DNA of 64,000 nucleotides from Massalongia carnosa (taxonomy: Eukaryota), in contig OZ287067.1 in assembly GCA_965645245.1 (NCBI GenBank), forward strand, positions 1,612,001 through 1,676,000. The letters run 5' to 3'. Made by a program: the position numbers and the translations under genes. Below, piece by piece: positions 4,076-64,000 of this stretch; position 1 is the first letter of the stretch; every line of letters starts with the position of its first letter. The notes beneath the pieces are model-generated. The model searched no databases. It was not told where the DNA came from and saw only the letters and a list, made by a program, of their open reading frames with translations.

Positions 4076-7000
4076 ATGACCTGGGGTCGCTTTCGCGGCC
4101 ACGCACCCAGCAATTCGCGAGGAACTTCTCGCCGCCAGAGCATGGTAGATATCACTCGACTGCAAAGCCAGAGCGATTATGCTATGCGGAATGATCAATC
4201 GGCCTCCCAATCCAACGCTCTACCACGGGCAGCATTGCCTCATCTGGTTCCTCTCTCCATGGACCAGCTGGATGCGTCCAATGGGTCTTCAGCTACCAGA
4301 AGCCCGCCAAGTTCGATGGTACGAGACCCATCGCCAAAACCTCAACGGTTTAGTCTTCTCAAATTTAGACATGCTTCGGACTCTCAGCTTTCGAGGACGG
4401 CAAAGGATCAAGCGAGCAGGGTTTCACCGCCAATGCCAACGGGTAAGCTCCTTTTTGTTCCTAGAATCGCAAGTCTGACTCAGGGCTCCACTGACACACT
4501 CTGGCCTTACAGCTCCCTCGATCATTACTACAGCACCGACCATGGATCAATTTGACCGGACGCAAAGGAAAAAATCTACATATACCCTTCCTCGCCGTCG
4601 CAAGGCTCCAGATCCCTTAACAACCCTCTCCTTAGAGCCATCTTGTAAGTCACTCTCCGAAGGAACAACGAATTCGGGCTTTGAGAGTGGCGTCTCGACT
4701 CCGGGCAATCAAAGTGCACGTATGTCCCGTATCACGTTTGATGAACCTGAAAGACAGCGAGGCGCCCCTCCAGCATACGGAGATGATGCGAGCTCGTCCC
4801 TGGCGCTGCCAGTCTTTAGGCACTCAGAGTCCTCAAGATCCGAGGGGAGCCTTGGAGATCATGGTGTATACGCGACGACCACTACGACCCACACGGTCTC
4901 AACTACCACAACCTTCTTCCGCTTGTCAAGACGTAAAAAGAACAAGGGACCTCTATTTCCATTACCTATCAAGGACCCCCCCAAAGAACTGCCCACGAAG
5001 TCAAACTTTACGCCGCATGAGTTACTAAATGGTCGTGTATCACAATCTCCAACCCGTCGTTCTCCCTCTCGGATTCACCCGGAGAGGGCTGAATATTCTC
5101 CATTCCGTGCTGGCTATGGCGATGATGGGTTCCCATCACCTTTGCCATCGTTGTCTTATGCTGCGCTCGCTGCGCCGGGCCTTTCGTCGTCACGCAGAGA
5201 CTCCACGACATCTGCACAATCTGGAAGATCTTCCCCAGCCTTCGCTCCTCCGATGCTGGGACGACGTGGAAGATCTTCAACAAAGGGCTCTTTGAGGCAA
5301 GTTGCTCATGATCAACCCCTTCCAAACCCTCCGCTTCCCCAGTCCGGGAGAACATCTACCTCAACCACAGGACGGGCTAGTCTCGGGGGGCTTTTTGGTC
5401 TCTCTCGGCTGAGGCAAAACTCGGAACCTCACCACCCACGTCATGGTGGGAGTAACGGAGGCACACCGGGTACACCTGCTTCTAATGGTTCCAAATCACA
5501 TTCGTTTAGCATCGCTCGAGAGCCGGTGGTAGTTCCTCAACGTCAAGAGGGAGATACTCCGGCAAAATATCTCTTACGTCTCGAAGAGGCTGTGAGTCGT
5601 GGCGTTGTTGCAACTATTCTTTCCAAATCAGATGACGAATTCTCGGGGAATGTCCTCCGTAGCTACATGCGTGGCTTCGGCTTTTTTGGCTATCCATTGG
5701 ATATGTCGATCAGAAAGCTACTAATGGAAGTTGAGCTTCCAAAGGAAACACAGCAGATTGACCGAGTCCTGCAGTCTTTCGCGAACAGGTACCATGAATG
5801 TAACCCGGGCGTATACGCATCCCCAGGTACGCGTTTAAGTGTCTTGGTTGCGTTTTTCTGCTCACACGTGACATCTAGATGAGGCATATTTTATCGCCTT
5901 TTCAATATTGATCCTTCATACGGACGTTTTTAATAAAAATAACAAGCATAAAATGCAGAAGAGCGACTATACTAAAAATGCCAAAGGCCAAGGTGTAGCA
6001 GAAGAGATCCTAGAGTGCTTCTACGATAACATCTCTTATACCCCATTCATTCATGTTGAAGATGACGTCGACATCAACGGGGAGAGAATCATTGCGCATA
6101 GACCTCACAAGGGTCTATTCGCCAAACCCAGTGCTGACCCTTTAAAGAAGCCGTCTCGAGAACCTGTTGATCCATACACGCTTATTTTGGATAACAAGCT
6201 AGAGTCGCTACGCCCGTCGCTAAAGGATGTCATGAACCTGGAGGATCCGTACTGCTATCTGGGTACCGCAACTTCGCTCAACCTCGCGGAGCTTCACAAA
6301 ACATTTTTTAAGTCTGGTGTCTTGCAGATTGTGTCTTCAAGGTCTCGACCAGAAGCATTCATGTCGCCGGAAACCATGGCAAACCCTGCTGAGGCTCATC
6401 CCGGAGTCGTAGATATCAAGATCACTAAAGTAGGGATGTTATGGCGGAAGGATTTGAAGAAGAAGAAAGCCCGATCGCCTTGGCAAGAATGGGGTGCTAT
6501 ACTGACAGGTTCCCAACTCTACTTTTTCCGTAACACGACGTGGATAAGAAGTCTTATGCATCAGTTTGATATCCACCAGAAGCTAGGGTTTGCCGGTACG
6601 CCTGTAACTTACAAACCACCGCTTGAGCAGTTCAAGCCGGACGTTCTAATGTCTACCGAGGATGCGGTGGCGCTGCTTGACACTACTTACAAGAAGCACA
6701 AGAATGCGTTTATCTTTGTTCGCCATGGCGGGTTTGAGGAGACGTTCCTGGCTGACAGCGAATCTGACACTAATGACTGGTTAGCGAAGTTAAATTATGC
6801 TTCTGCATTCAGGAGTGCAGGCGTGCGAATGCGTGGTTTGATTGGAGGGAACTACGACGGCCAAAGGGCTCGAGGAATGAGGCGGATGGATTCCGGCAAG
6901 TCTACGCAATCCATTCAGACTGCCACGGGGGAGGTCCTGATTCGAAGCGGGAAGATTGATGCGGAGCTTGCTCGTCAAATCCAAACAGCAAGACGGCAAA

Positions 7001-8313
7001 TCATGGCCCAGAAGATAGCGGAAGCCGAAGAGAAACTGGAGACTGCCAATAAGCAGTTAGAGGTACACTTGAGAAATGCAAGGCATTTGCAGATATTAGC
7101 ACCCATCCAGAGTAAGACTCGGGAGAGAGTGATACTTGCTGCGGGTAGGATGGCAGCAAAGATCAAGTGGTTACGTATGGAAATGTGGCGCACTCGCTGT
7201 CACAAAGATATTCTTGCCTTGGATCTAGATGAAGAGCTTAGATACTCGCATGAACGTGACTTGCAACATGACAACGTATCTACCCTGTTTTCCTCTGTTG
7301 CTACATCTGGGGCTCAGGACATGGCCAAACTGGAACTGCAAATCAGCCATCTTAGCAACACTCAAGCCGCTCCTCAAAGAGGCAGTGCGACCCGGCCCTC
7401 TACTCAGTCATCGCCTGGTAAGAGCTACAACATGGACGATGCCTTCCAATTGCCTTTACAGACTCCAACACCAGGAAGTCAGCACAAAGTTCAAGGATCT
7501 TGGGAGCTGCCACCATTGTCCTTCCAGCCAACGATCTCGTCCCTAAAGTCTGGGTCTAGCGCTAAGGCATCAACAACTGCACCTGAATTACTAATACATC
7601 ACCCCTCGCTAGGAAGTGTTAGGGGGAGTGAAAGAGTACCTGAGCTAACTGGCATTGCCACGAGGCTGGCGACCCCAACGCCCAGCTTGGGTGATGATGA
7701 ACAAGAGATTCTGATTGATGCTGGTCTCGTTGGCCCGGATAGTCCTTCCCCGAAGACAAGAGGTACGGATGCCACAAGTGACGGAGAAGGTCCCGATGGG
7801 GACTTTAACGACGGCAAGGCAAAAACCCGACGAAGCTTACATCGCACTCTCCGTGAAGCGCACGTTCCAACGCATTATCGTAGCAGAAAAGGGAAAGATT
7901 CTGCTTCCAGCGCAGGCATGACGGAAGATGCTCTGTCGGTGGCAGAGAGCGAAGGCCTGACCCGCGGAGCTGGCAGTTTTACTTTGCATGGTAAGAAGGC
8001 CTCTGTTATCACCTTCGGCTCCGAATGGCAGGACATGTCACCTGAGGAGCGCTTGAAAATGCGGAAATCGGTGCCGGGAGACGAAGCGAAGCTGTCGGTG
8101 CCGTCTGCGGTAGAAGATGAGCGTGCGTCAACACGGTCGGCCTTCAATCTAGATGCGCGACCCACTTCGGCCATTAGCGGAAGCACGACTACATCGTGGA
8201 ATTTGGCGCCTGCAAAGGATGGGGAGTTTGGGGTTTCTACATCTAATGGGGGCAAACCACAGGGCACTGGACCAGCAGAGGATCAACGCATGTCGTCGGG
8301 ACGAGCGGGTTAG
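4076..8313 (+). CDS. Sec7-domain + PH-domain Arf guanine nucleotide exchange factor (Syt1-like); introns ~4443-4511 and ~5827-5878
   Basis: Sec7 motif ELPKETQQIDRVLQSFANRYHECNP, ILHTDVFNKNNKHKM; PH motif WQEWGAILTGSQLYFF. Confidence 0.9.
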
Positions 8314-8785: not shown

Positions 8786-10637
8786 TTACCTGCCACCACC
8801 ACCCAAGCCCAAATACCGCCGAAAGCACAAACTCGCATTCGTGCCGCCGAACCCGAAGCTGTTCGAGAGCGCCACGTCCACAGTCCGGCGCTGCGCGCTG
8901 AGAGGGACGTAATTGCAGTCAAAGTCCGGGCCGTCGAGCTCGGTCAAGTTGAGCGTGGGCGGGAGGGTGTTCTGCGGGTTTTCAGCAGGAGGAAAAGAGA
9001 ACCAGTGCTACCATGTTTAGGGATTTGGTTTTTGTCGTGGTCCCCTTTTCGCTCATCACGTCTTGTGGGGTGTTTATTTTGGGGGGGATAAGGGGGGATA
9101 AGGGAAACACTCACATCTCGAATTGCCAGCACTGAGAATAAGGCCTCTACCGCGCCCGCTGCGCCTAACAAATGCCCCACCGCGCCCTTGGTGCTACTTA
9201 CATTCACCTCGGCCGCGCGCCGTTTACCCTCCGCCCCTTCCAGCATCAGCGTCTTGATGGCGCGGTTCTCGGCCGCGTCGCCTAGGGCGGTGGAGGTCGC
9301 GTGCGCGTTGATGTAATCGACTTCCGCGGGCCGAATGGAGGCGTTTTTCAGGGCGAGCCGCATCGCGCGGTAGGCGCCTGAGCCAGAAGGGGGCGGGGCT
9401 GTGATGTGGTGCGCGTCGGAGGAGGAGCCGTAGCCGGCTAACTCGGCGTATATGTGAGCGGAGCGGGCAAGGGCGTGTGAGAGGGACTGTGAGTTGATGA
9501 GAAAGGGGTGGGAAGAGTTAGTTGAGAAAAGGTTTCAGTTTCTGGAGAAGTGGGGGAATGGGGAATGGAATCTTTACCTCGAGGACAAGGACCGCGGCGC
9601 CTTCTCCAATGATGAATCCGTTACGGGCGGCGTCAAAGGGGCGGGATGCTTGATACGGACTAGAGTTTGCGGATGTGGTTAGGGAGTGCGAGCGCTCGAA
9701 ACCGGTGAATGCGAGGGGGTGGATGCAGGATTCGGCTCCTCCGGCTAGCATGACGTCTGCGTCACCAAAGGCGATGAGGCGAGAGGCGTCACCGATCGAG
9801 TGGGCGCCTGTCGTGCAAGCAGTTGTTACGGCGTGAGAAGGACCCTGGGGGTTTGGGCGTGGTTAGATACAGGCAGCTCTGGAAGCACGATCTCCGACAA
9901 GAAGGGAGAGAGACCTTGAAGCCGTATTTCATAGAGATATGGCCCGCCGCTAGGTTAATCAGAAGTTTAGGGACGAAGAGAGGAGAGACCTTCTTGGGGC
10001 CCTTTCTCGAGTGTTAGAGTCACGAACCACGCAGAGAAGATTAATGAGACTCACACCTTCGGCGTAGGCGAGGGATGTGTTATAAATGTCTTCGAAGCTG
10101 CCGATTCCCGATCCTAGGCAGACTCCCTATTCGCTGTCTTAGGCACAGGGCTTATTTAGTAAATATCAGAGCCAGGAAACCACCGACGGTCATCTCTTTC
10201 TCCTCTTCGCTGCCAGGGCGCCATCTGGCGTCTTCCAAAGCCTCATGCGAAGCGGCCAGTGCATATTGCATAAACTTTGACGTTCTTCGTAGATCCTATA
10301 CTCTTCATCAGTTTTTTCCCTCCAGTTTTTGCCTGCTATCCTGAGACGTTCTAGACGTACTTGTTTGCCGAGCCATTCATTCGCATTCCAACCCCCATCT
10401 TCCTTTTTCCCTTGTGGAATGAGGCCCGCGACTTGGCACTGCTGCTGCTCAAATATAGTAGCTTTGTCGGAAGGGAGGGATACGACGCCGCATTGGCCGT
10501 CCAGAAGACGCCTCCATGAGCGTTGTGCGCCTGTTCTTTTCGTCAGGGAGGAGTCGTAGCAAATAATTACATGACATTACGATACCTAATCCCAATGGTG
10601 TCACTGCTCCGAGGCCTGTGACTACAACTCTTCGCAT
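8786..10637 (-). CDS. CEM1: Mitochondrial 3-oxoacyl-ACP synthase (multi-exon)
   Basis: [73 protein letters not shown]. Confidence 0.93.
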
Positions 10638-12409: not shown

Positions 12410-14060
12410 TCAGTCAGCCACTAGTCCTCCGGCCTCGTCTGAACGGAGTGCACTTGTTGGTGGTAAACCGTCCTCCTCGTCCTCCAGCTGCTGGGGCTGT
12501 TGGCGAATCTGCCTTCTTCGATCAACCCATCGGCGCCATGGTTTATATAGGATTACGCTAAGGCCGCCAAAGAGGATGAAGGAGCCACAAATAGAACCGC
12601 CTATTTCCACCGGTCAAAGAAGTGATCCGCTTAACTGGGGGAATTTGGCTCTCTACCGATGATTTCATAGTGGTCCCCAGCGATTCCTACACCATCCCAA
12701 AACTTACCTGAGGGTTCGGCAACGTTCAGGATGAGGGTCAATAGCTGGATGACGCCAATGACGACAGCTACGACGACGGTGATGACGGTGAGCACGATGG
12801 AGTAGTAAAGGATGGCGATCTGATCCTTGGCGAGGGCGGTCGAGGTGTACAGCGCCATCATGAGGGCGCCGTCTGTTGTGTCGAGAAGGCACATTCCGGC
12901 TGTTTTTTTTTTGATACGACGTCAGGAAAAATGGGGCCGCCTTAGAAAAGTATATAAATTCGCATCTTACCAGTAAAAAGAATAGGGAAGATTAAAATAA
13001 GCCAGATGCTCGTGCCTTTAGCGCCTTGAATCGATGCAATACCCAAAAGGGCAACTTCCGACGATGTGTCAAACCCGAGCCCAAACATGACGCCTAAGGG
13101 ATACATCTTCCACGGCCTAGTTAAGAATTACCAAAAAAACATCCTTAGGTCTATAGAAGCGTGTGTTTTCCCTACCGGTCAATCAGCTTGAACATCCTCC
13201 TGAACAAATGGAAAAGGCAGCCCGCTCCCTTAATCTGAAACTCCTGCTCCTCCCCGGGGGCGGAGGCAATCAATTTCCTTATCTGTTGTAATAGCTTGTA
13301 GAGAATGTAAAGATTCAAGATACCGAGTATGATTAGAAATGCAGCAGAGACTGAGGTGCCAATGATCCCACCAATTCTGCTAAAGGAACCAAATTTGGAG
13401 CTGATAGCCGAGGCGGTAGCAGCCACAGCAATAGAAGTGATGACGACGATGCTAGGAACGATGAGGCTATCAGATTTTCTGTCTCTTGAATCGGGATCTA
13501 CCCGATCCCATGAGGGTAGAAAGAAACATAGTTATGCAGCGTACGTAGAATGGCCCAAGGAGAAAAAGGTCCCCACAGTTACGGGACGCTGCCCCGATGC
13601 TACCAGTCGTCGAGTCATCAAATCAATTGCCTGTAGTAAAGTTCAGCCATGATTTAAACCCCCTCGTCGTCAAGTCTTGCATACCGAGATGTGATCTGCG
13701 TCCAAAGCATGGCGAAGTCCTAGGGTATAGGCTAGGACCGCGGTGGAGATGAATGTGCTGCATCTAATGTATTAACCCTTCTTGCTTCTTTTTCTAAACT
13801 AGACAAGCCTTAAGTAGAGCCATCTAGATACCTGTGATAATGCTAAAAATTCCATAATCAGTCGAGCGAAACTACGACGCAAAGCAAAGATCTCTGTGCT
13901 CCCGTACCAACACAATCCCAGTAGCCACCCAGGCGAGCGCATTGGCAAAAGCAACGGCGACAATGATGCCAATTGCTGCCAAGGGCAATTTTCTTACCCC
14001 AGGAATGCGTTCGTGGTATAGATGTGCTTTGTTCTGAACGTACTTGCGAAACTGGCCCAT
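12410..14060 (-). CDS. NIC1: High-affinity nickel permease (NiCoT family), multi-exon
   Basis: Signature [13 protein letters not shown] read on minus strand at ~13685-13722; [22 protein letters not shown]. Confidence 0.92.
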
Positions 14061-35167: not shown

Positions 35168-36958
35168 ATGAGTTTTGGCGCCGGTGCGGGTGATATCATC
35201 ACCCTTTCCCGGCTCGCCTGGAGTATATACAAGACTTGCAAGGAGTCGTCCGACGACTTCAAGCGCGTCTCGACCGAAGTCGCATCGCTGCATGTCATTC
35301 TGAAGGAGACCGAGGAGTTCCTGCACGAAGACAATGGCCTCAGCGATTCCCGACGCTCGCGGCTGGCAACGCTGATTGAAACCTCGACCGACGTGCTTAA
35401 CGACCTGAAGAAGCAGCTTTCCAGCTACGAGAGTCTTGGCACGCATTCGCAGCGGACGTGGGATCGGCTGCGATGGGGCTTGGAGGACATTGCGGATGTT
35501 CGGTCGCGGTTGATTTCGGTGAATACCACGCTCGCTGCCTTCAACAGCAGCTTGACCAGGTGAGTGGGAGACTCCCCGTGCCTACACGGGCTTTTTGCAT
35601 GGTCGCCATGGACTTTGGTGGTGCGCTTCGAAAGGCTGACGCGGAGGACCAGTTCTTCCCAAGCACGGATTGAGAAAAAGCTGGAAAAGTTCATCGCGGA
35701 GGTTCGCGCCGGCTTTCGAGAGGGCTCCGTCGTGTCGACGCATCACCCGGAAGCTCTGGATAATTCCGATTCCTGGAACGAGCTGCAGCGGGAACTCGAG
35801 GACATTGGTATCTCCGCGGGCATGGTCAGCGAGCATCAGGACTACATCAAATCCTGGTTCAAGGAAGCCATCGCCTCGGGACTCCTTGACGAAGGGAGCA
35901 AATCAAAGTCCATCCCCAGCGATGACAGCGAAAACGACAACTACTCCTTCCCCCGCCCTCTCCGTAGCCGCATGCTTCATTCCTCATCTGCTGCCACAAT
36001 CGCAAACATGGCATCTGTATCCTCTGCCTCCTCCTCCAACCAACTCTCCGCTCAAACTACCCTCGTCAACGATCCCTCCTCGATCCAACCCCGCGATCTT
36101 GCCCACAAGCCCTCTTTCCTGCGCTCTCGCACCATGCCCCAAGAAATCGACGCGCTGCTCTCCCACGACGACCCCCTATTTCCTAATCTCCCCCCGCCTA
36201 CTCGCTCGGACACCGCCGCCTCGCACTCCCCCGCCATGCTTCTGCGCAAATATTCCCTTCCTTCCCTCCTCCTCTTCCGACTCTTCCAGACCGACACCAA
36301 ACTCATCGAAGCCGCCTCCGACGGCTCCATGGAGCGTGTCGCCACCCTTCTGTCGCGCGGCGCGAACGTCAACATCCGCGATAAGTGGGGCTGGACGGCG
36401 CTCTCCATGGCCGCATACGGTGGCCACGAGAACATCGCGAAGCTCCTTCTGGCCTGTGGCGCCGATATGGACATCGCCGACGTGGACGGCGACCTCCCGC
36501 TCGACTTGGCGACCAACCGCGGTCATGCGGGCGTGGTCATCGCCATCGAGGAGGAGCGAGCGAACCGGGTGGTGAGGGGCGTGCCGGAAGCCTTCGTGCC
36601 CGCGTTGGGAAAGCGGACCAAGCCTGCAGGCGGAGGCGGCGCCGCGGAGCAAACTGCGGGCGATCCCGCGTGGAAGGGATCGTCCGCGACCTCGGTGGAG
36701 ACGCCGGGGATCAGTCCACTGAGCAGGACCGGCACGGGAATCAGCCCCCTTCGCGTAACAGTCAGCCCTGCCAAGCCCTGCCAAGCCCGCCGCCATTGCC
36801 GTGGCGGCGATGACGACGACGACGACGACGGAGCCCGGCACAAGCCCTCTGGCGCGAAGAGCCACGACGGAATTCGGGCCGTTGAAAAAACGACCCACGT
36901 TCCAGGTTCGGGGCCGCGGGCTGAACGGGGCTGTGCGCTAGGTAATTCTAGGAGCTAG
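35168..36958 (+). CDS. Fungal STAND N-terminal (HeLo-like/SesA-type) domain + ankyrin repeat protein; intron ~35560-35652
   Basis: MSFGAGAGDIITLSRLAW.IY..CK...DF..VS.EV.SLH..L, WDRLRW; ankyrin repeats DKWGWTALSMAAYGGH, DGDLPLDLATNRGH. Confidence 0.82.
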
Positions 36959-37080
36959 GCCATGTATGTAATGTTAATTCCGTGTCGGCTCGGTTCGGTT
37001 GGGTTGGTTGGTTGGGTTTTTGGATTCTGGCGAGTTCTTCTTTCTCGTGATTTTGGGGGGTGTTTCTTTCCTGTTTGTTG

Positions 37081-54300: not shown

Positions 54301-54551
54301 AAACACCCATTCTGCATGGCTTATGCTTCTTTGGAATCAGCGGCAAGCATGTGTACCAAACATACGGAGCTTTCAGAAACATTAAGGTAAGGTTTGCAGG
54401 AACAGTGATACCAGGGCAGACGCTGAAGACCGAGATGTGGAGGGAAGGATCCAAGGTGATATTTCAGACTCTGGTTGCAGAAACGGGAAGGCTATGTATC
54501 GCAGGAGCTGGAGCGGAACTGGTAGCAGATGGCAAGGAGGCAAGACTGTAA
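51359..54551 (+). CDS. FOX2: Peroxisomal multifunctional beta-oxidation enzyme (2x SDR + hydratase 2), multi-exon, PTS1-like ARL
   Basis: Two VTGAG.G / [11 protein letters not shown] domains, [14 protein letters not shown] hydratase motif, ends ..EARL*. Confidence 0.96.
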
Positions 54552-55346
54552 TTGACCTTTCCTTGACAGAAGCTAGCCATGGCTTTTCACTCTGTATGGA
54601 ATATACCGATGTATGTTATATCTTGACATAGCAGTAACGCTGTTTTGAGCACAGATTTTTTTGCCTCGTTGCTACTACATGTCCTTTAACACGATTTGAG
54701 TGTCTGCCTATTGCCTGCTCGGGGAAAAAAGGGTTGGCCTTCCGAAAGTCCGTTAGTTGACTCCAAGAGGCACTCTGTACCTGCTAGTTACCACTCGTGT
54801 TCAAGAGTAAGTACTTTATGATACCTACCTTAAGGGCGGTTGGGGGTTTTCGGACATGGTCTTAGAATGATCTCAAGATCCCGGACATGTCTTCGCTAAA
54901 CTAGGTACTTGTACACCGGAAGGTTCCCGGTTTGTATTTTTTTTTGAGCGCTTTCCTGATTGAGATGATTCAACATTGTCCTGCACGTGTAAGATAGCTT
55001 AAAATTCTCCTTCTGTTTGGTGAGAAATATCTGCAGATCATATAGAGTCTGATATCATTTGGAAAATACGATAGTCTTGAAAAGGATATATCTTAGTGAA
55101 CATTCATATTGGTATGAACAGTGCTTTGCATTAAAGAGCATCTGACAATGATTTGAAGGTCGTCTCAGTTTTGAAAAGATCTCAAGACCTTCAAGATCGT
55201 GTTCCGGATAAAACGATCAGAAAACAATCCTATAAAAGAGATATCAGTCCATGCAACCTCGTTACAGCTGAGTTGTATTCGAGTTCACATGCTGTATTCG
55301 CCCAAATGATGATTAGGGAAACAAGTTATTGATTTAGTGACAGCTT

Positions 55347-58300
55347 CTAATTTACAGCTCTATGAATGCTATCATCCTCATGCCATGTTTCCTGTTCTCG
55401 TTGCTGTCTCGCACGATCTAGTCTTGAATGGCTCCATCGAGTCATTTCCGTACCTCCTCTCACAACATGTATGAAACCGATGAAACAAGGCAGACAAGAG
55501 ACGTGCCTTGAGGACCTGAAGAATAAGACTGTTAGCTTGAATTGCAATATGCGCAGAGAACACAACGTACCAAGCGACCATGGAGAAGAAAGGGCAGCCT
55601 GACGCAACAAATAAATTAGTCTCAGTTCTTTCATACAAGTTTGAATGGGATAGATTAAGCACCGAATTTATGATGGAGAGTGTCGGCAAAACTCAGCTGT
55701 TTTGACCTGACAAACCCTTCTCGCCTGAGGATATTCCAGAGGAGATTTCTAAGACGGCCTTCTCGGAAACGGCCTTCTCGGAGACGTCCTTCTCGGAAAT
55801 GGCCTTCTCCAAGAAAGCCTGCTTTGGCATGACTCTAGGTTCTTTATCGTCTGTCAGCTGTAGTTGCATCATCAATGTCAGCAGAATGGGAAGAACTCTC
55901 ACAAAACTCCAGCAGCATTGAGTATGCTCAAACATTGCTTGACATGTTGTTCTTCCACCTGCAATTTTAGCTTTGATAGCATTCGATACTTTGCTTAGTA
56001 ATTTATCGTAAGTGACGTGAGGACTAATCCTCATATATTGCTGATCTTGACCAAACTGAGCATGAAAGAGTAGCCTCAACGCTCGATCAAGTATTTCAAC
56101 GTCATTTAAATCCTCGACAGTGTAGATTCTTGTCGGAGACAAACTCAACAAGTATCGCAAGTTCATTTCATCTTGATTGTATTGCTCCTGCTCGATTGAA
56201 GTTAGTTTGCTGTAATTTTGTCTCAACTTCTTGGTCGTTATCGTCTCCAAAACAATATCTTTCAAGGCAGTTATCTCATCTCCGTCTTCATCACTTTGAA
56301 AAGCATCATCACTATCATCCGATGTCACCTCGGATTCTTCGTCATAGTTCTCCTCTTCGTTGTCACTGTCCTTAAATGATGAGTCTTCCTCAAACCGATC
56401 TGAAATTTCTTCATCCACATCTTCGTCCATGGATGCTTTGCTCTTCAACTTATGGCGCTTACCTTGACCATACTCTTGATAAACATCATCTTGCAGCATT
56501 GTATTCGCGAATCTGTCAGGTCTCTGACGTTTTCGGGGTGCAGGATTCGTGACTGTATTTTCGAGATCAATGTCCATTGAATCTTGCACCGTGATAGCTA
56601 ATCTACCGCCGGTCTCCTCGTCAAACTCGACATTCATCGGGTTATTTGAACCCTCTGTGGGAAGAAAATTCGTTTCCTTCAGAATCTCGTGTCCTCTCTG
56701 ACTCTCGTGTGCCTCTTTGACGTATTTATTCGACTCATTCAATAAGTCGACAAGCAGGTTCTGCACCTCTGACGAAAAGGATCGACTTTGCAATCTCCGA
56801 TGAGGGTACAAACGCTTCTGTCAAGCAGCTGTGCTTGACCGTGCTTGGAAATGAACTTCATGCCGAGTATTATCTTGCAGATAGCAATAGGTGGACCGGT
56901 CTGTGATGCGCTGCCTGTAAAAGCGTTTTGAATGTCGAAAAATCGTTTGAGATCATGAACGGAAACGGGCTTTTTAAGACATGTTAGAGTCAACTTCAAA
57001 TTGATATGAGATTGAATAAATACCTCAGCTGAGAGAAGTGCGGTCTCGCTATCAGTTTGAGCTTGTTATAGCTCTTCTCGCACCTTTCTATTGAGCTTCA
57101 AGATACTATTATCCTTCAAAGCCTTGCGCATCTGACTGCAGACTTTGTCCAGTACATGATGTTGCTAGCGTAGCAGACCTTCTTCGGTAAAAACATCGAA
57201 GTTTTCATGGTATAGAAGCATTTCCGAGTGTTGCTTTGAGTCAAAATATGACTGCGGAACGGCTTTTTTCCGCGCAATCGTGGAATCACTAGACAAAATT
57301 GCTGCAGTTTATCCTGCAAAGACCGCGAATAGGGTTCTTTCATTAAGCTAGAGTCCATGTTTTCTGAGTCATTTTGCATTGGCATAGTGTCCTCGAGCGC
57401 TTATGACGTTTGTGACATCTTCTCGAAAGCTTCATCAATAGATTGCGTGCTCACTAGATTGACCACAGATCTCACAGCTACGTCGTTGTCTTCCGTCACC
57501 TAAATGTCTTTCAGAATTGCCAAGAGTGGTCCGTCATGCTCATAGTCAAAGTCTTCATGCTCCTTAATGACATGCAGAGTATAAGAGAATATGAACTCGT
57601 CCACATCCTTTTTGGCAAGAAATTCCAGGACCTCCGACTAGGAATCTGCAGTAGAGGGGTGATTTAGGTCGTAGATCAACAACTCTCGTATCGGTATGTC
57701 TGTATTTCTTACACTAAGACTCATTGTCAAGAAGTCTACACGAAGCTGTTCAAAGTGGAGCTGTCGGCGCAGAGTATCTCGCCACATCTCACCAGTTGGA
57801 TATGCACGTGGATCTCGCTCTACTTGCACATTGCTCTCGGGAAGGCGTAAACCATTGAACACGATAAAATCCTGCACATGCTTGTCAAGCTTTAAACTGA
57901 ATTCGGTCTTCTGATGACGATCCAGATACAATATGAAAGATTTTCGTATCAATTCGGTTGGCTCGACAGAAGCAATAGTAATAGAAAGATCATCTTGCGA
58001 CTCCTCAGGCCGCATCCAAGAGGGTATCATGTCAGCAGAGATCAAAGTGGATGCGTATGGTGAGCTTTTTGCCTTGACGAATGTTTCCCTCCACTTTGTT
58101 GGCGAGAGGACACATTGTAAAGACTTTAAAATCGAGTTGGTCCGGCTATACCTTTCTAACTCGTCTTCTTTGAACTTTTGCAAGGGACCCAGTTTGGGAT
58201 ACTGTATGACAGTGTCATTGTATGCGGGAATCTTGATATTCGGTATATTCGAACTTAGAATTTGTTCAAATCGGGTTGAAGCCGCTCTGTGTCTTTCAAC

Positions 58301-58805
58301 ATCATAAGATCTAGTGGATGAGGCTTCATCAATGGCTTCTGCGAGCCGAAAAAGTATGGCGGCATATAGATAGTCTCTGCTATCATTGGTTTGACGCCTG
58401 TTGGCCCTATCATCCTGATCTGTAATGGGATATTTTGAAAGAAGCTGACCTAAGTCAGCTGGAAAAGCATCTGACAGGTCAGGAAGATCTCGAAGAAGCG
58501 CCAGAGGAGTTTTGACACTTCTCTGTTGACAGTTTTGATGGTATGGAATATACCATTCTAGTACAACATTACTGAACCGAAACTTTCTATATTCGGCGAC
58601 ATCGCTGTATCCTAAATAAGCGGCTGTCTTTGGTTCATTCTTGAAAAACTTGGCATGAGTGTCCAAGTTCTCATTCGTCATCTTCTTATCTATATCCTTC
58701 TTTACTGCTCTCCTCGTTTTTCTAGGCGTGATCGGGATCGTCTGAAAAAAGGTAAGTTAAAAGCTTTAGATGAAGATATCATAAGAAATAAACATTTTCT
58801 TCCAT
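55347..58805 (-). pseudogene. Large (>1000 aa) unknown gene broken by in-frame stops and frameshifts
   Basis: ORFs 57638-58681 and 57116-57385 are in one frame; 55693-56811 and 55378-55689 are in one frame; introns near 58744-58793 and ~55514-55570. Confidence 0.6.
55750..55815 (-). repeat. 15-bp tandem repeat (EKAIS/EKDVS/EKAVS/EKAVL)
   Basis: (G/T)CCTTCTC core repeated four times at 15-bp spacing. Confidence 0.85.
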
Positions 58806-58987
58806 GATGTGGATAAGTAGAGGCTGAAACCTGTGATAGTAATGTGAGATGAGGTTGTATCTCAAAATCAAGTCAGGGGATCATACCAGTTTAAGAACTG
58901 ATGATCGAGAAGAGATCGATAGTAGTACTCAGATGGAGAACGAATGAGCAACAGGATTGAAAGAACAAATCAATGACGGATGGGAAG

Positions 58988-59040
58988 GAAGGTAAAGATG
59001 AGAAGAAAGGTAAAGATGGGTAGAAAGGTAAAGATGAAAG
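58988..59040. repeat. 18-bp tandem repeat x3 (core AAGGTAAAGATG)
   Basis: Directly visible upstream of the large unknown gene. Confidence 0.85.
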
Positions 59041-59143
59041 AGGATAGATCAAGTGAAATGAAGATCAACGTTGATCTATGGGCCTAGCGAAAGTGTTGTC
59101 CTAAATTCAGACAATATCAGTTCAGTCGTCATGACGATTTTTT

Positions 59144-62100
59144 TTACAAAAAGTTGACTCTCCATGTACAATGTAACAAATCCATATCTGATTCTTTGTT
59201 ACTGTTTGAACTTATTGTCGACACGACATGTGAGGATACTAGCTCATTGAGCGTACGATTAACAGGAACAATGTAGATCTTATCTAGATCAACAAAGAAT
59301 AACGGGATCACTCTATCCGTGTCTGTCAGTTGAAAGATGCTCAAATTTAGGACCTCGTCTTTATAGGAAGCGGTCTTTAGCGGTCGAATCCAAAGGAAAA
59401 CTCGCTGAGTATTCTCAAATGGTAGACAGTGAGTATAAATTTGTCGAAGCTGAGCATATGTGCCAGAGCGGAGTCGAAGAAAGTCGCCAATATGCAATGA
59501 GAAACGTTTGCCGGTTGACCTGACAGTAAAGGAGCATTGTAAATACCAGTACAAAGGCTTGTTTCCCCATTGAACGCCATTAAGGCCATACCGGTCATAG
59601 CAGTCTGCATCAGTTGCCTAAATCGGAGCTCTGTGGAGTTGGTTATTCTGGTAGGAAGACCTTGATTTTGTACACAGGAAAGTTTGAGCTTTCCCCGCAC
59701 TGCAGGTTTTAGATATGAGTGAGATTCTAATAGACAATTATTTGTCGACTCCTGATCGTCTGTTTGTGAGCGATCCCCGTGGAATAATAGATTTTCAAGA
59801 AGAGCTGGGCAGTTCCGCTTCAAACGAATCATTTGCAGAGTGATCTCCGGATCAGTATGACGAAATGAGCCATTCAAAAGAGCGACGACAGTGAAGAGGA
59901 TAGCGGCTTTCACTAAAAGCTGTCGCTCTTGCTTTCGATGATTTGTTGACAATACGGCTTGCTTAAAAAAGCGATGTTTGTCTTCTCCAAAGAGAACATT
60001 AACGTTCCACAGAACACCATACTCCTGCATGACTCTTTCGAAATGCATACCGATATGAAAGTTTGGCAGCTTATCGGCCTCGCCATTCCGAGTAGTCACT
60101 GACGCAGAAAGTCTCATGTCGGGATCTGACACAAGATTATCAACGGACGTCTCTTCAAATGGAGTTTCCGTATCACCAATAAGGGAGTTTATGGATGTTT
60201 CAGAAATAGATGCTCGTCTAGAACTGGAAGATAACTCTTCAGTGACAGACTCACTTTTCTCGTTGTCTTTCTTCTTTCCTTGTCGTTTTGGATTTTGTGC
60301 TGCATTCATCAAACCTAGAAAACATTGTCGAGCATTGACGATTTGACTGTGAAATTCTTGACGATCTTTGAGGGATAATTCGAAAGACGAGATTAACGTG
60401 TTACTCCATGCGAGTCTCCCAAAGCAAAACACTATCAAATCTTCATCTGAAGCGCAATAGCGACGTTCTTTAGGAAACTGAACTTTCAATCCATTTCGAA
60501 AGGCTGTCGTACATGAAGGTTTCTTAACCAACAGCGAAGAAGTGGAGGTCTTACGACTGAGGCACGAGCGCATTCGCTCATACTCCACGAGGCCATATGA
60601 ATAGCCGGAGACTGTATTCGGCCCCAGCCAGGTGGAAACGGAAAACAGTGCAAGGCAGCTGTAAACTCTTCAGCAGCCCGTTTCGTGAGTATTTTCGTGT
60701 AAAGAAGAGGGTACAATCTTCGTACCAGTCCATAATACTCGCTATGAGCCGGATCCGGTGGATAACTCATGATAAGATCAAGCGCCGGGGTTAATGTCTG
60801 AAGCGCAGAAGATTCGGGTTTGAGGCCATTTCGTGTAAGATATGCCAGTCTCTTTGTCTTTCCTTTTATTGCTAGGCTTTTTTTCGGTATAGCCAACACC
60901 TCATGATGATAACGACCATGAAGTAGAATGTCCCGCTGCAAATCTCCTCGATTATGGAGGCTCGCATCACAAAAGCGACAACAATAGTTGGCACGTGGCC
61001 CAAGAAACCTTCCGGAGGCTTGCTGCTGCTTCGTATCACCAAGATATGCTAGAATCGAGGCCCAAGCCGCTTGTTTCTGTCCATTGATTTCAAGAATGCA
61101 ACCACGATCCATGTTTCCCAAACTGGTTTGAAGACAGTTCATCACATCGTTAAACTCGGATCCGTGCGGGCCAAGAGCAATGGTGTAAACATTAAAACTC
61201 TTTTGACGTTCCGAGGCGGGCAAGCCTGCTGGCATGGCATAGACACTAGTGATGGAACGGTTCGATATAACCCGAAATCGTCGATGAAAATGACAAGGGG
61301 ATATGACTGAACTCCTTTAATTAGCTGTGAGATTAGGTACTCTCGACCAAAGACTTCTAATTCTAATTCCGCTCGAATCGGGGATGAAAGATTGATTAAT
61401 CTAAGATCTCCTCGCGTGACGTTGAGTATCTGACGAATTAAGACAGGCGTTGTAGACCGTACCTGATCATTCCTACAAATTGCAACATCGAAACGGCGAG
61501 CTAGAACATGCTCGGATAAGACATCTTGATCCGCGTCTTCTATCAAAAGCAACTGATCTAAGGGCCAGTCAAACGTGACTGGAACTGGATATTCGTTGAC
61601 GTTCTTTCTACTTATCAAAGGACGAATCCTGACAAGAGTTTGACCTAGGGTCAAAGATCGCGATCTTTGATCACGTCCAAAAAATGACCTGTCCGCAGTG
61701 ACTATCATGAATAATCCCACATTTATCATTGCCACAGCGATACTGCACAATGTCAGAGGGAAAAATAGGAGATGAATCGGGAAATCTCGCAAAATCAGTG
61801 GAACATGTACGAATAGAAGAACCCCAACTGTTTGAATGCTAGTATTCCGAAGGACTATCAACGATCTCTGCCATACCGATATGAATGTTTCGTTGAGTAG
61901 TGGCTGAAAGTAATATACTGATAACAGTTCGAGCATCGAAGTAATAGACGTTGGCTTGAGCCGGTCTTGGTGTTCCGGTGGGTTGTTTTTCTCGTCGTAC
62001 TGATACCGCTGCCTTCTGAATGGATGGAAGAGGAAGGCGCTTACGGCACCAGGAGTGCAAAGTCGATAGTCGCTTTGGCAAATTTCGCACTTCATGAGTG

Positions 62101-63000
62101 TCTAGCAATTGCAAAACTTCGAGCAGGCCATCATAGGTGCGTCGCTTGATGCCTTCTTTATCACACCAGAGACCGAGAGCCAGGCAGAAATCCGATATTT
62201 CTCCTCGTACTGGGCGGGAGGGCACCCGGATCTCATCATCAATCGTGCTTTCAGAAGTAGAAGGGGCAAACTCGTTGAAAGACTCAGCGGTGTCTGTGCT
62301 TTCTATATCAAAGTCCGCAAGCTGATTGGATGGCAATTTCATGATAGCATTTGAAGAAATTAAGCTGACAGCAAAGGCCGATGTATCAGCTATTGAAGCA
62401 GGCCGAGTATGAGCGTTTTGAAACTCTTCATCAGTTTCCCGCTCATAATCACTATTTTATCGAATCAGTTTCCCGCTCATAATCACTATTTTTTTTATCG
62501 AATGCCGTCTCTATATCGGCTGGCAAATTGTCTTAAACGTGTTGTTCAGGAACTTGGTTAGACGATGGTTGGATTTTATTGAGATTCTCTATGGTTCGCT
62601 TCTTATGCGCCATTGTCATTCGTTCTGAACTCTGGGTCTGCTTTTGCTTCTCATGAATATGTACAGAATTGTGTTGATATGAAGAACCGGCTTGCGTAGA
62701 CCCATGGCCAGGGGAGTCTATCGGTTGACTTTTGGAAGGCAGTGGGTTGGCCCGTGGGACACTGCTCTGAACAGTGGATGCTGGAACAATCAATGCCTTT
62801 TCCTCAAGAGGAGGACCCTGAAAACTGAAATCATCAAGGTCGGGTTTATTCAGACTGATATGAAGAAGGCTTACTGCTGGAACGGTTGAAGCAGTGTCAA
62901 TGGTTTATGCTTTCTTCTCTTTCTCAAAACATGACCTTCGTCGAGCATCATATTCTCCGTCGCATCATCCTGATATACCCAACGAGGTATCTTGTCTCAT
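59144..63000 (-). pseudogene. CMC/EnSpm(CACTA)-like DDE transposase, disrupted; 5' end approximate
   Basis: IFIDDFGLYR, LGPHGS, AYLGD..QQ, CRFC, PPDPAHSEYYG, PNFHIGMH...YG...NVLFGEDKHRFFK; C-terminal BAH-like IGDFLRL. Confidence 0.7.
62430..62503. repeat. ~34-bp tandem duplication inside the transposase region
   Basis: TCAGTTTCCCGCTCATAATCACTATTTT...ATCGAA occurs twice back to back. Confidence 0.85.
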
Positions 63001-63174
63001 AACTGAGTTTAATTCTGTGCGCAGGTGAGGTATTCTCATGAAGAATCACTTGTGCGTTGATATTTTAGTTCTTAGGGCTTTAGCACACTATTTCAGAACA
63101 TTAGCATTCGTCTTTACTGCTTCGCGCTTTCTTCCGATTGCACTATCATTAATGCTGATATCACAAATACAATC

Positions 63175-64000
63175 ATGAACGTATCACCGTCAAATGAAGA
63201 GGTCCTTGAACCTTTAACGCAAGCCGAAACACAATTAGGATCAATAGCGGCAGAAATATCAACCAAAAGGACGCGGAGAAGACAGGCCATTACCTCCGAA
63301 TGGAAATAAATAGCCATGCGAATGGAGGCTTCTTTGCGGCCATTTGCGCTGCGTTATGGCAAGCTGGACGCAGATCAAATAGCGCACATCGTTCGAAATG
63401 CAATAATAGAAGACGTAGATGAGGAAGACATATATTTCAGGAAGGGAGTCACCAAGGCGCAATCCAACGTTTCAACGTGGGAACATCGCTCTCTAGAGTG
63501 TATGAAAGTATGTAGCTTGCTATTAGCGTTTATACTCGACTTCTAACTGTTTTTAGAACTACATACAGTCTGCTATCATGAGAGACAACCTAGGGCTGCT
63601 GGAATCCGAGCATGACTCGAGCAGGCTATTCAAAGCCTTTGCACAGCAATATGATCATCATGATGCTGAGACAGTGTTTCCACGAGAAGCCAAAACTTTG
63701 ATGTTCCACGAGGCTTCAAAGAAGGGTGCAATGCCTCGAGGGCCCTATTGGATTAAAGGTAAGTGACAAGGCACACGAGAACTGATGGAATTTACATATT
63801 GATATGAAACAAGTATATTTTTTAAATCTCGCTGTCAAGACGAAATTGTACTCAGACGCACCTAGAGCCGAAGGCACAGATCGAACCTCTTTTTTAGAGT
63901 TTTACGATACATTTCCTCAAATGGCAAAACATTAAGCCACATCATTTCAAATTGAAACCAGCTCGGGCAAAATGCCTAAGAAAGGAATCGTCAAATAATC
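63175..64000 (+). pseudogene. Unknown spliced gene divergent from the transposase, in-frame TAA at 63307; runs off window
   Basis: MNVSPSNEE...SEWK*IAMRMEASLRPFA...; GTATGT donor at ~63508 and TTTAG acceptor at ~63556 join ORFs 63316 and 63578. Confidence 0.55.

Follow-up and report, generated by a model that had tools for sequence, protein, structure and literature searches.

The DNA analyzed here is a stretch of 64,000 nucleotides from Massalongia carnosa (assembly GCA_965645245.1, contig OZ287067.1, forward-strand positions 1,612,001 to 1,676,000), hereafter called the window, which corresponds to G000:C1:1612001-1676000 in our numbering of the 52-Mb genome (25 contigs). After a FOX2-like gene with MFE-2 hydratase/MaoC domains, ending at 54551, the window contains three disrupted genes: a transposase gene on the minus strand (59144..62904), a co-oriented second gene (55899-58681, minus strand) and a divergent three-exon gene on the plus strand, here called gene 3. 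All three lie where a sequence-only reading of this DNA had located them. That reading proposed a CACTA-like element occupying positions 54830..64000. A multi-gene element of more than 9 kb is indeed present, but it starts at 54826-54828 and its right end lies approximately 450 bp beyond the window. We found that the window most probably (at a probability of roughly 0.8) holds a decayed deletion derivative of about 9.6 kb, belonging to an 11.85-kb DNA transposon family of the cut-and-paste kind in the EnSpm/Plavaka/Transib (CMCT) clade. That the element is real and is a transposon is well supported.

The similarity to other sites in the genome sets in sharply at 54826. The exact termini, the variable outer flanks and an empty paralogous site identify the TA at 54826..54827 as the left copy of a target-site duplication (no strand assigned), and a terminal inverted repeat of 52 bp starting with CC follows on the plus strand (54828..54879). 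The inverted repeats, which the sequence-only reading had suggested looking for beyond the window along with a duplication, were obtained by BLAST of the element ends. The repeats are 52 bp long (CC..GG) and 87-93% identical across 54 bp including the TA. This constant TA adjoins the repeats, while the bases outside it vary and are not duplicated. The right repeat of the window copy, at C1:1676413, is damaged by an 18-nt loss and a degenerate tip. The exact terminal pattern (all matches start with TA by design) is found 43 times in the genome, 25 times forward and 18 times reverse, against none for the reversed control, and the matches are thus not due to chance. These 43 termini form 15 inward-facing end pairs with a spacing between 0.9 and 21 kb. 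One copy is inserted in another repeat, of which the paralogue L163 represents the empty site, with the same context twice and a single TA; the filled site reads TA-element-TA. This comparison therefore defines the duplication as TA and the ends as CC..GG. The host repeat is unfilled at 23 of 25 loci, with a matching context only in L163. Among 41 distinct target flanks, T is found at position -4 in 25 and A at position -3 in 27. The suggested search for an empty site at the FOX2 locus, made in four sequencing runs, gave no joint skipping the whole element among the joints listed, and hence no orthologous empty site. In lichen metagenome run X1, contigs of low depth leave out short stretches across each end of the locus (L166:176-236 and 9777-9814), a picture that would arise if this insertion were there with its two termini trimmed.

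The transposase is encoded by a broken single-exon gene, delimited by copy comparison, with a RAG1/Transib-like DDE fold according to structure prediction. In the window its frame is interrupted by frameshifts near 59591, 60499, 61261, 61686 and 62455 and by stops at 61841 and 62535; a frame of 1244 codons is open in the copy at C3:2783061-2794839. All motifs claimed earlier were located: DDFG (61282), GDM (61040), CxxC (60983), DPAH (60755), HxxxH (60057) and GEDKH (59988). In an alignment of 67 sequences, D370, C389, C392, D464 and H467 are invariant, and D286, H697, H701 and E721 are found in at least 90%. The first D of DDFG, the D of GDM and the E of GEDKH are the best candidates for the catalytic triad, with CxxC and HxxxH as putative zinc ligands. 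An AlphaFold model of the last 1000 residues (predicted local distance difference test, pLDDT, of 88) has RAG1 as its best match (E 2e-7; Z 13.8, root-mean-square deviation, rmsd, 4.6, 442 aligned residues), and the RNase H-like DDE fold that the sequence-only reading anticipated was thereby recovered. In an unbiased fold search against 48,161 chains, RAG1 and ProtoRAG occupy ranks 1-5, followed by BAH domains and by P-element and Transib transposases. Model residues 81-263 match many BAH domains (VIA-align; Z 8-9.4, rmsd 3.4-4.6, 124-142 aligned), which corresponds to a region at approximately 61350..61895 on the minus strand, ahead of the first catalytic Asp. The predicted structure thus shows a RAG1/Transib-like fold with a BAH-like domain. 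A second BAH domain at the C-terminus (Atlas score of 0.97 to a ‘BAH domain-containing’ cluster, with low recognition) is a lead that whole-model fold searches do not support.

Pfam does not recognize this protein: the intact 1000-aa (amino acid) stretch matches no family at E ≤ 5, and the window's own frames yield nothing significant. A PDB sequence-profile search returned no hits. Transposase_21 is matched neither by the transposase nor, at E ≤ 0.01, by 44 homologues. The Plavaka profile PF18759 has no match in the query transposase; it matches three of eight homologues weakly and, in a second set, eight of 44, one of which just reaches the cut-off, over the region from GDM to CxxC. Ascomycetes of various classes have homologues with 31-62% identity (71 of 7,999 scored candidates were hits), and a search with a transposase profile retrieved 4,427 representatives at E ≤ 0.001. 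The closest named relative is from Lasallia pustulata (56% identical); a Lasallia transposase is recorded as SLM34489.1.

The second gene, previously regarded as a companion of more than 1000 aa without known identity, is by its sequence a SNF2-family ATPase of which the motor is deleted in the window copy. The window retains a 3′ remnant with an acidic tail and a C-terminal domain (55899..56783, minus strand), recognized by tblastn of 1500-aa Pseudogymnoascus homologues (29% identity), and a broken 5′ remnant of about 600 N-terminal codons (56784..58681, minus strand), delineated by copy comparison and tblastn. The junction between both (56783..56784, no strand) marks a deletion of about 2.17 kb that removed both ATPase lobes and is common to all five aligned copies of subfamily B. 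Since this deletion takes out the whole motor, the gene had appeared unknown. The full-length gene matches SNF2-rel_dom (PF00176) with an E-value of 3e-18 (66 bits versus a cut-off of 24.9). A model with five introns results in an open frame of 1551 aa in which helicase motifs I, II, III, V, and VI were located; the model is co-linear with the 1500-aa Pseudogymnoascus proteins, and was 35% identical to them over about 1550 columns before the fifth intron was added. Recorded SNF2 homologues include OBT75776.1, KFY93428.1 and KFY63209.1. Among solved structures, the gene 2 product is closest to Rad5, an archaeal SNF2 and Rad26/CSB, each a weak match. The N-terminal part may contain a ubiquitin/PB1-like domain, a fold match (Z 7.1, rmsd 2.7, 82 residues aligned) that falls short of the trust level of the tool; Foldseek gave no match for this model at E ≤ 0.001. 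At locus L078, the gene directly upstream of the transposase (31% identical) is a SNF2 gene (E 6e-13), and a frame resembling gene 3 is visible by alignment only. In addition, contigs of the same two lengths, 10,339 and 25,045 bp, occur both in the cluster of a 58%-identical transposase and in that of a 48%-identical SNF2 exon, which suggests that both genes share these contigs. None of 20 unnamed or distant transposase clusters that were looked up has a Pseudogymnoascus neighbor.

Gene 3 is composed of three exons (63175-63507, 63557-63758, and 63814-64086, the last ending past the window) and encodes a protein of about 271 aa with a basic stretch and an acidic tail. The gene is delineated by a splice model, by its ratio of nonsynonymous to synonymous substitution rates (dN/dS) and by homologues beside related transposases. 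A stop codon at 63307 disrupts the window copy, which has also lost 8 nt at 63927. The protein belongs to no known family, with no match among longer proteins, no usable Atlas match and no Pfam family for a homologue. In 80 metagenome loci that hold related transposases, tblastn of genes 2 and 3 detected neither at E ≤ 1e-3; this search proved too insensitive, and phmmer and hidden Markov model (HMM) searches overturned it. A gene 3 profile was found at 11 of the 80 loci (iE ≤ 0.012; none for reversed controls), a number that includes four seed loci and two loci that nearly duplicate each other, with about 30 of the 80 loci having at least 1.7 kb upstream. The elements L061 and L065 (6.4-6.5 kb, TA-C ends) contain only a transposase and gene 3. 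Together with gene 3 at the related loci, they therefore point to transposase plus gene 3 as the core design. Sequence comparison thus presents gene 3, which had been seen as cargo, as a conserved, lineage-wide partner of the transposase.

The ends of the relatives read CC or CT, and those of L135 are nearly identical to the ends of the element. This 12.6-kb relative (L135:3922-16538) is very AT-rich, resembling the outcome of repeat-induced point mutation (RIP), and its transposase is 31% identical; the 4 kb downstream of its transposase are unreadable and yielded no SNF2 match. Two distant relatives of about 8.7 kb with TA-CT ends (L112:4752-13428 and L116:4576-13366; 27-28% identical) carry, upstream and in the same orientation, a gene that matches no known family. 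The related element in L061 is bracketed by a 40-bp direct repeat present in two copies (6975-7013 and 13553-13593), and in L021 (7548-8723) a Rrn11-like host gene is located about 5 kb past the right end of the element.

The transposase core occurs at 25 or more places in the genome (32 matches, grouped) and gene 3 at 27 or more (34 matches, grouped), the latter within about 8 kb of the core at 24 of 25 places, in agreement with the multi-copy family of co-occurring genes that was proposed from the window. Nineteen copies projected on the consensus fall into three subfamilies. Type A (six copies) is full-length, about 11.85 kb, with copies differing by 0.5-1% from their own consensus. Type B (five copies, including the window copy) lacks the 2.17 kb of gene 2 described above, and type C (eight copies) lacks a different 3 kb of the same gene. 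Type A diverges by 6% from B and C, which differ by 2.3% from each other. The copies examined show no one-way C-to-T excess indicative of RIP. Between the subfamily consensuses, dN/dS (own Nei-Gojobori script) is 0.38, 0.38, and 0.42 for the transposase, 0.11, 0.13, and 0.23 for gene 3, and 0.23 (A-B) and 0.16 (A-C) for SNF2 (all p ≤ 1e-3). All three genes are thus under purifying selection between subfamilies (dN/dS of 0.11-0.42). The private mutations of individual copies are close to neutral in most tests. Taken together, both observations are what one would expect if the genes work for an active element and decay once a copy has inserted. The consensuses of B and C have open transposase and gene 3 frames and have each lost SNF2 independently; SNF2 is therefore either not needed in cis or provided by type A copies.

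The synonymous divergence (dS) of gene 3 between A and B/C is 0.58-0.69, far above the 0.09 of the transposase, which suggests from the sequences that gene 3 may have been swapped in from a more distant relative. Two copies of the element sit within one derivative of a second repeat family at G000:C1:3661119-3661266; this family is abundant in the genome (more than 70 matches), and its long ends are rich in GC and internally repeated. At G000:C3:153646-154569, a derivative of 924 bp that has kept both ends of the element has the same flanks on both sides as the 8.1-kb copy at C1:3661267, and was therefore duplicated with its host repeat and shrank afterwards. A public lichen metagenome contains a fraction of 0.67 of the sampled words of the element, which together with the Lasallia relative suggests a lichen-forming ascomycete as the probable host. 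No RNA run is present among the sequencing runs listed as holding element sequence, and no relative was found on viral contigs. Within the window copy, short tandem repeats with units of 15 and 18 nt are located at 55737-55826 and 58979-59037, respectively. Outside the element, the window has a GC peak of 64% at 36001-37000, compared to about 47% elsewhere.

Given the fold, the motifs, the ends and the duplication, cut-and-paste transposition of the RAG1/Transib type into TA is the most likely mode of movement. By analogy with the established biochemistry of RAG1 and Transib, the transposase would bind both inverted repeats, cleave the element ends with its Asp-Asp-Glu triad and join them across TA, staggered by 2 bp, slightly favoring T at -4 and A at -3. 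Gene 3 might be a permanent helper, comparable to the second protein that CACTA elements encode. Both the SNF2 motor and the BAH domain could act on chromatin, either by opening nucleosomes at the donor ends or the target, or by countering silencing; SNF2 would then be of help without being needed in cis. The window copy itself is a dead member of a motor-less subfamily, with broken frames and a broken right end.

Several observations weigh against this interpretation. The TA duplication is based on a single paralogous locus. Of six full-length-type copies checked, only one has an intact transposase and none an intact SNF2 gene. The SNF2 remnant common to B and C has a dN/dS of 0.70, which is not significant, and two tests of private mutations depart from neutrality (0.61 for the type A transposase, p 0.03; 0.51 for the N-terminal part of type B SNF2, p 1e-4). 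Regarding gene 2, the Helicase_C match is under the cut-off and one intron is an inferred GC-AG intron. The SNF2 of L078 is only 22% identical to the SNF2 subfamily of the element and no inverted repeats were found around it, SNF2 is found at only one of the 80 related loci (most of them short contigs), and the link through the shared contigs is indirect. Subfamilies B and C multiplied nonetheless without SNF2, and the roles proposed for gene 3, BAH and SNF2 in transposition are read from sequence. The filled and empty sites would formally have the same sequences if the ends were ACC..GGT and the element had inserted bluntly inside TA without duplication, but this is very improbable, as CMCT elements duplicate 2-5 bp and mostly start with C (PMC12730594). 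Size and gene content are all that the element has in common with Starship cargo or a segmental duplication that is not self-mobile, an explanation we regard as next to negligible: precise inverted-repeat ends at many unrelated sites, the TA duplication and the element's own DDE transposase speak against it, the paired ends refute it, none of the three full-length genes belongs to a recombinase family, and the frames scanned contain no recombinase domain, consistent with the earlier remark that a tyrosine recombinase is missing.

SNF2 looks accessory because subfamilies without it multiplied and the two-gene relatives of 6.5 kb lack it. One may go further and consider SNF2 a captured passenger, kept for host benefit or for general relief from silencing, without any part in cut-and-paste. 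Its loss in two subfamilies that still multiplied, its absence from L061 and L065 and its presence at one of 80 related loci are in line with this, but purifying selection between active subfamilies, with every inserted copy decaying, agrees with selection acting on the element rather than on the host, and a second, distant lineage likewise pairs SNF2 with a related transposase. We therefore hold the passenger role to be rather doubtful. As to affiliation, the element may be a reduced, three-gene form of Enton, the multi-gene fungal transposon presented at a meeting in 2012; the published mentions describe Entons as fungal and En/Spm-derived (PMC3520738) and as carrying a SNF2 helicase (PMC3627910), but the ends of our element are not CAC, and this identity is quite possible while falling short of probable. 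An ascomycete branch of ESTA, EnSpm-like elements with a TA duplication, is an unlikely affiliation: the TA duplication and the RAG1-like transposase fit the ESTA definition (PMC12730594), but in the accessible part of that source all 19 listed ESTA elements start with CAC and all are from rust fungi, as opposed to CC in the element and CC or CT in its relatives. We tentatively put forward, as a conjecture we do not consider probable, that the family forms an unnamed, widespread ascomycete branch of RAG1-like transposons, apart from ESTA, Plavaka, and Enton, that targets TA, has a BAH reader built into its transposase and a dedicated partner protein, and is equipped in more than one lineage with a SNF2 motor of its own for nucleosome remodeling in transposition or for escape from silencing.

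For a large transposase family (the 4,427 representatives) that is largely missed by Pfam and labeled hypothetical in databases, the preferred interpretation, a CMCT cut-and-paste transposon, provides concrete ends, a rule for the target, models of the genes and evidence of selection. It also offers a testable case of a transposon that would come with chromatin machinery of its own, namely the BAH-like domain and SNF2, and for which derivatives naturally lacking SNF2 can serve as controls; the chromatin role of both is deduced from their predicted domains.

Compared with known systems, the element shares with the CMCT clade a DDE transposase in which C(2)C and H(3-4)H lie after the second D and ahead of the final E, a RAG1/Transib-like RNase H fold in its predicted model and, with TA at one paralogous empty locus, a target duplication in the range of 2-5 bp. 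The 5′-CA..TG-3′ ends that this clade has ‘in most cases’, though not absolutely (PMC12730594), are replaced by CC..GG. The CACTA-like label given earlier thus applies at the clade level but not to the termini: EnSpm/CACTA elements have CAC ends and a 3-bp duplication (PMC12730594) and a Transposase_21 profile that our transposase does not match, although they share the C(2)C and H(3-4)H signature and a two-protein design. Plavaka elements differ in their ends (TGT..ACA or CATCA..TGATG) and their variable 2-3 bp duplication, and their profile (PF18759) matches some homologues weakly but not the element's transposase. Styx of Zymoseptoria is likewise a multi-gene fungal DNA transposon, of 8 kb, but has an IS3EU-type transposase, a 6-bp duplication and, in the accessible description, no SNF2 among its four frames (PMC10853768). 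The available parts of PMC10853768, PMC11075540, and PMC5751038 describe nothing matching the element, and the literature searched (without Repbase and most subscription journals) contains no paper on a three-gene, TA-targeting, CC-ended and BAH-bearing form.

The sequence-only reading found no named family; close named kinds do exist. ESTA (Kojima 2025, PMC12730594), compared here by its partly available description, belongs to the CMCT clade and has a TA duplication, a RAG1-like transposase and a size of 7-14 kb, but also CAC ends, a rust fungal host range and, in some members, TET/JBP cargo; ‘SNF2’ is absent from the main text of that paper. Entons (Kapitonov; PMC3520738, PMC3627910), likewise compared by brief description only, are fungal elements with a transposase of the En/Spm clade (a likeness at clade level only), several conserved genes and a SNF2 helicase, but five to six conserved proteins versus three genes in the 11.85-kb form. 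A SNF2-carrying fungal transposon of the CACTA clade is thus not new as an idea, as Entons were already reported with SNF2, but the Enton design has apparently been mentioned in print without being described in detail, and no defining paper or sequence was found in the same literature. The element departs from both ESTA and Enton in a defining feature of each. Its catalytic core has its best structural match in Transib, RAG1, and ProtoRAG, with about 10% identity, and differs from them by a BAH-like insert and by its 2-bp TA duplication, where Transib duplicates 5 bp. With the element, the RAG1/Transib fold family gains a fungal relative.

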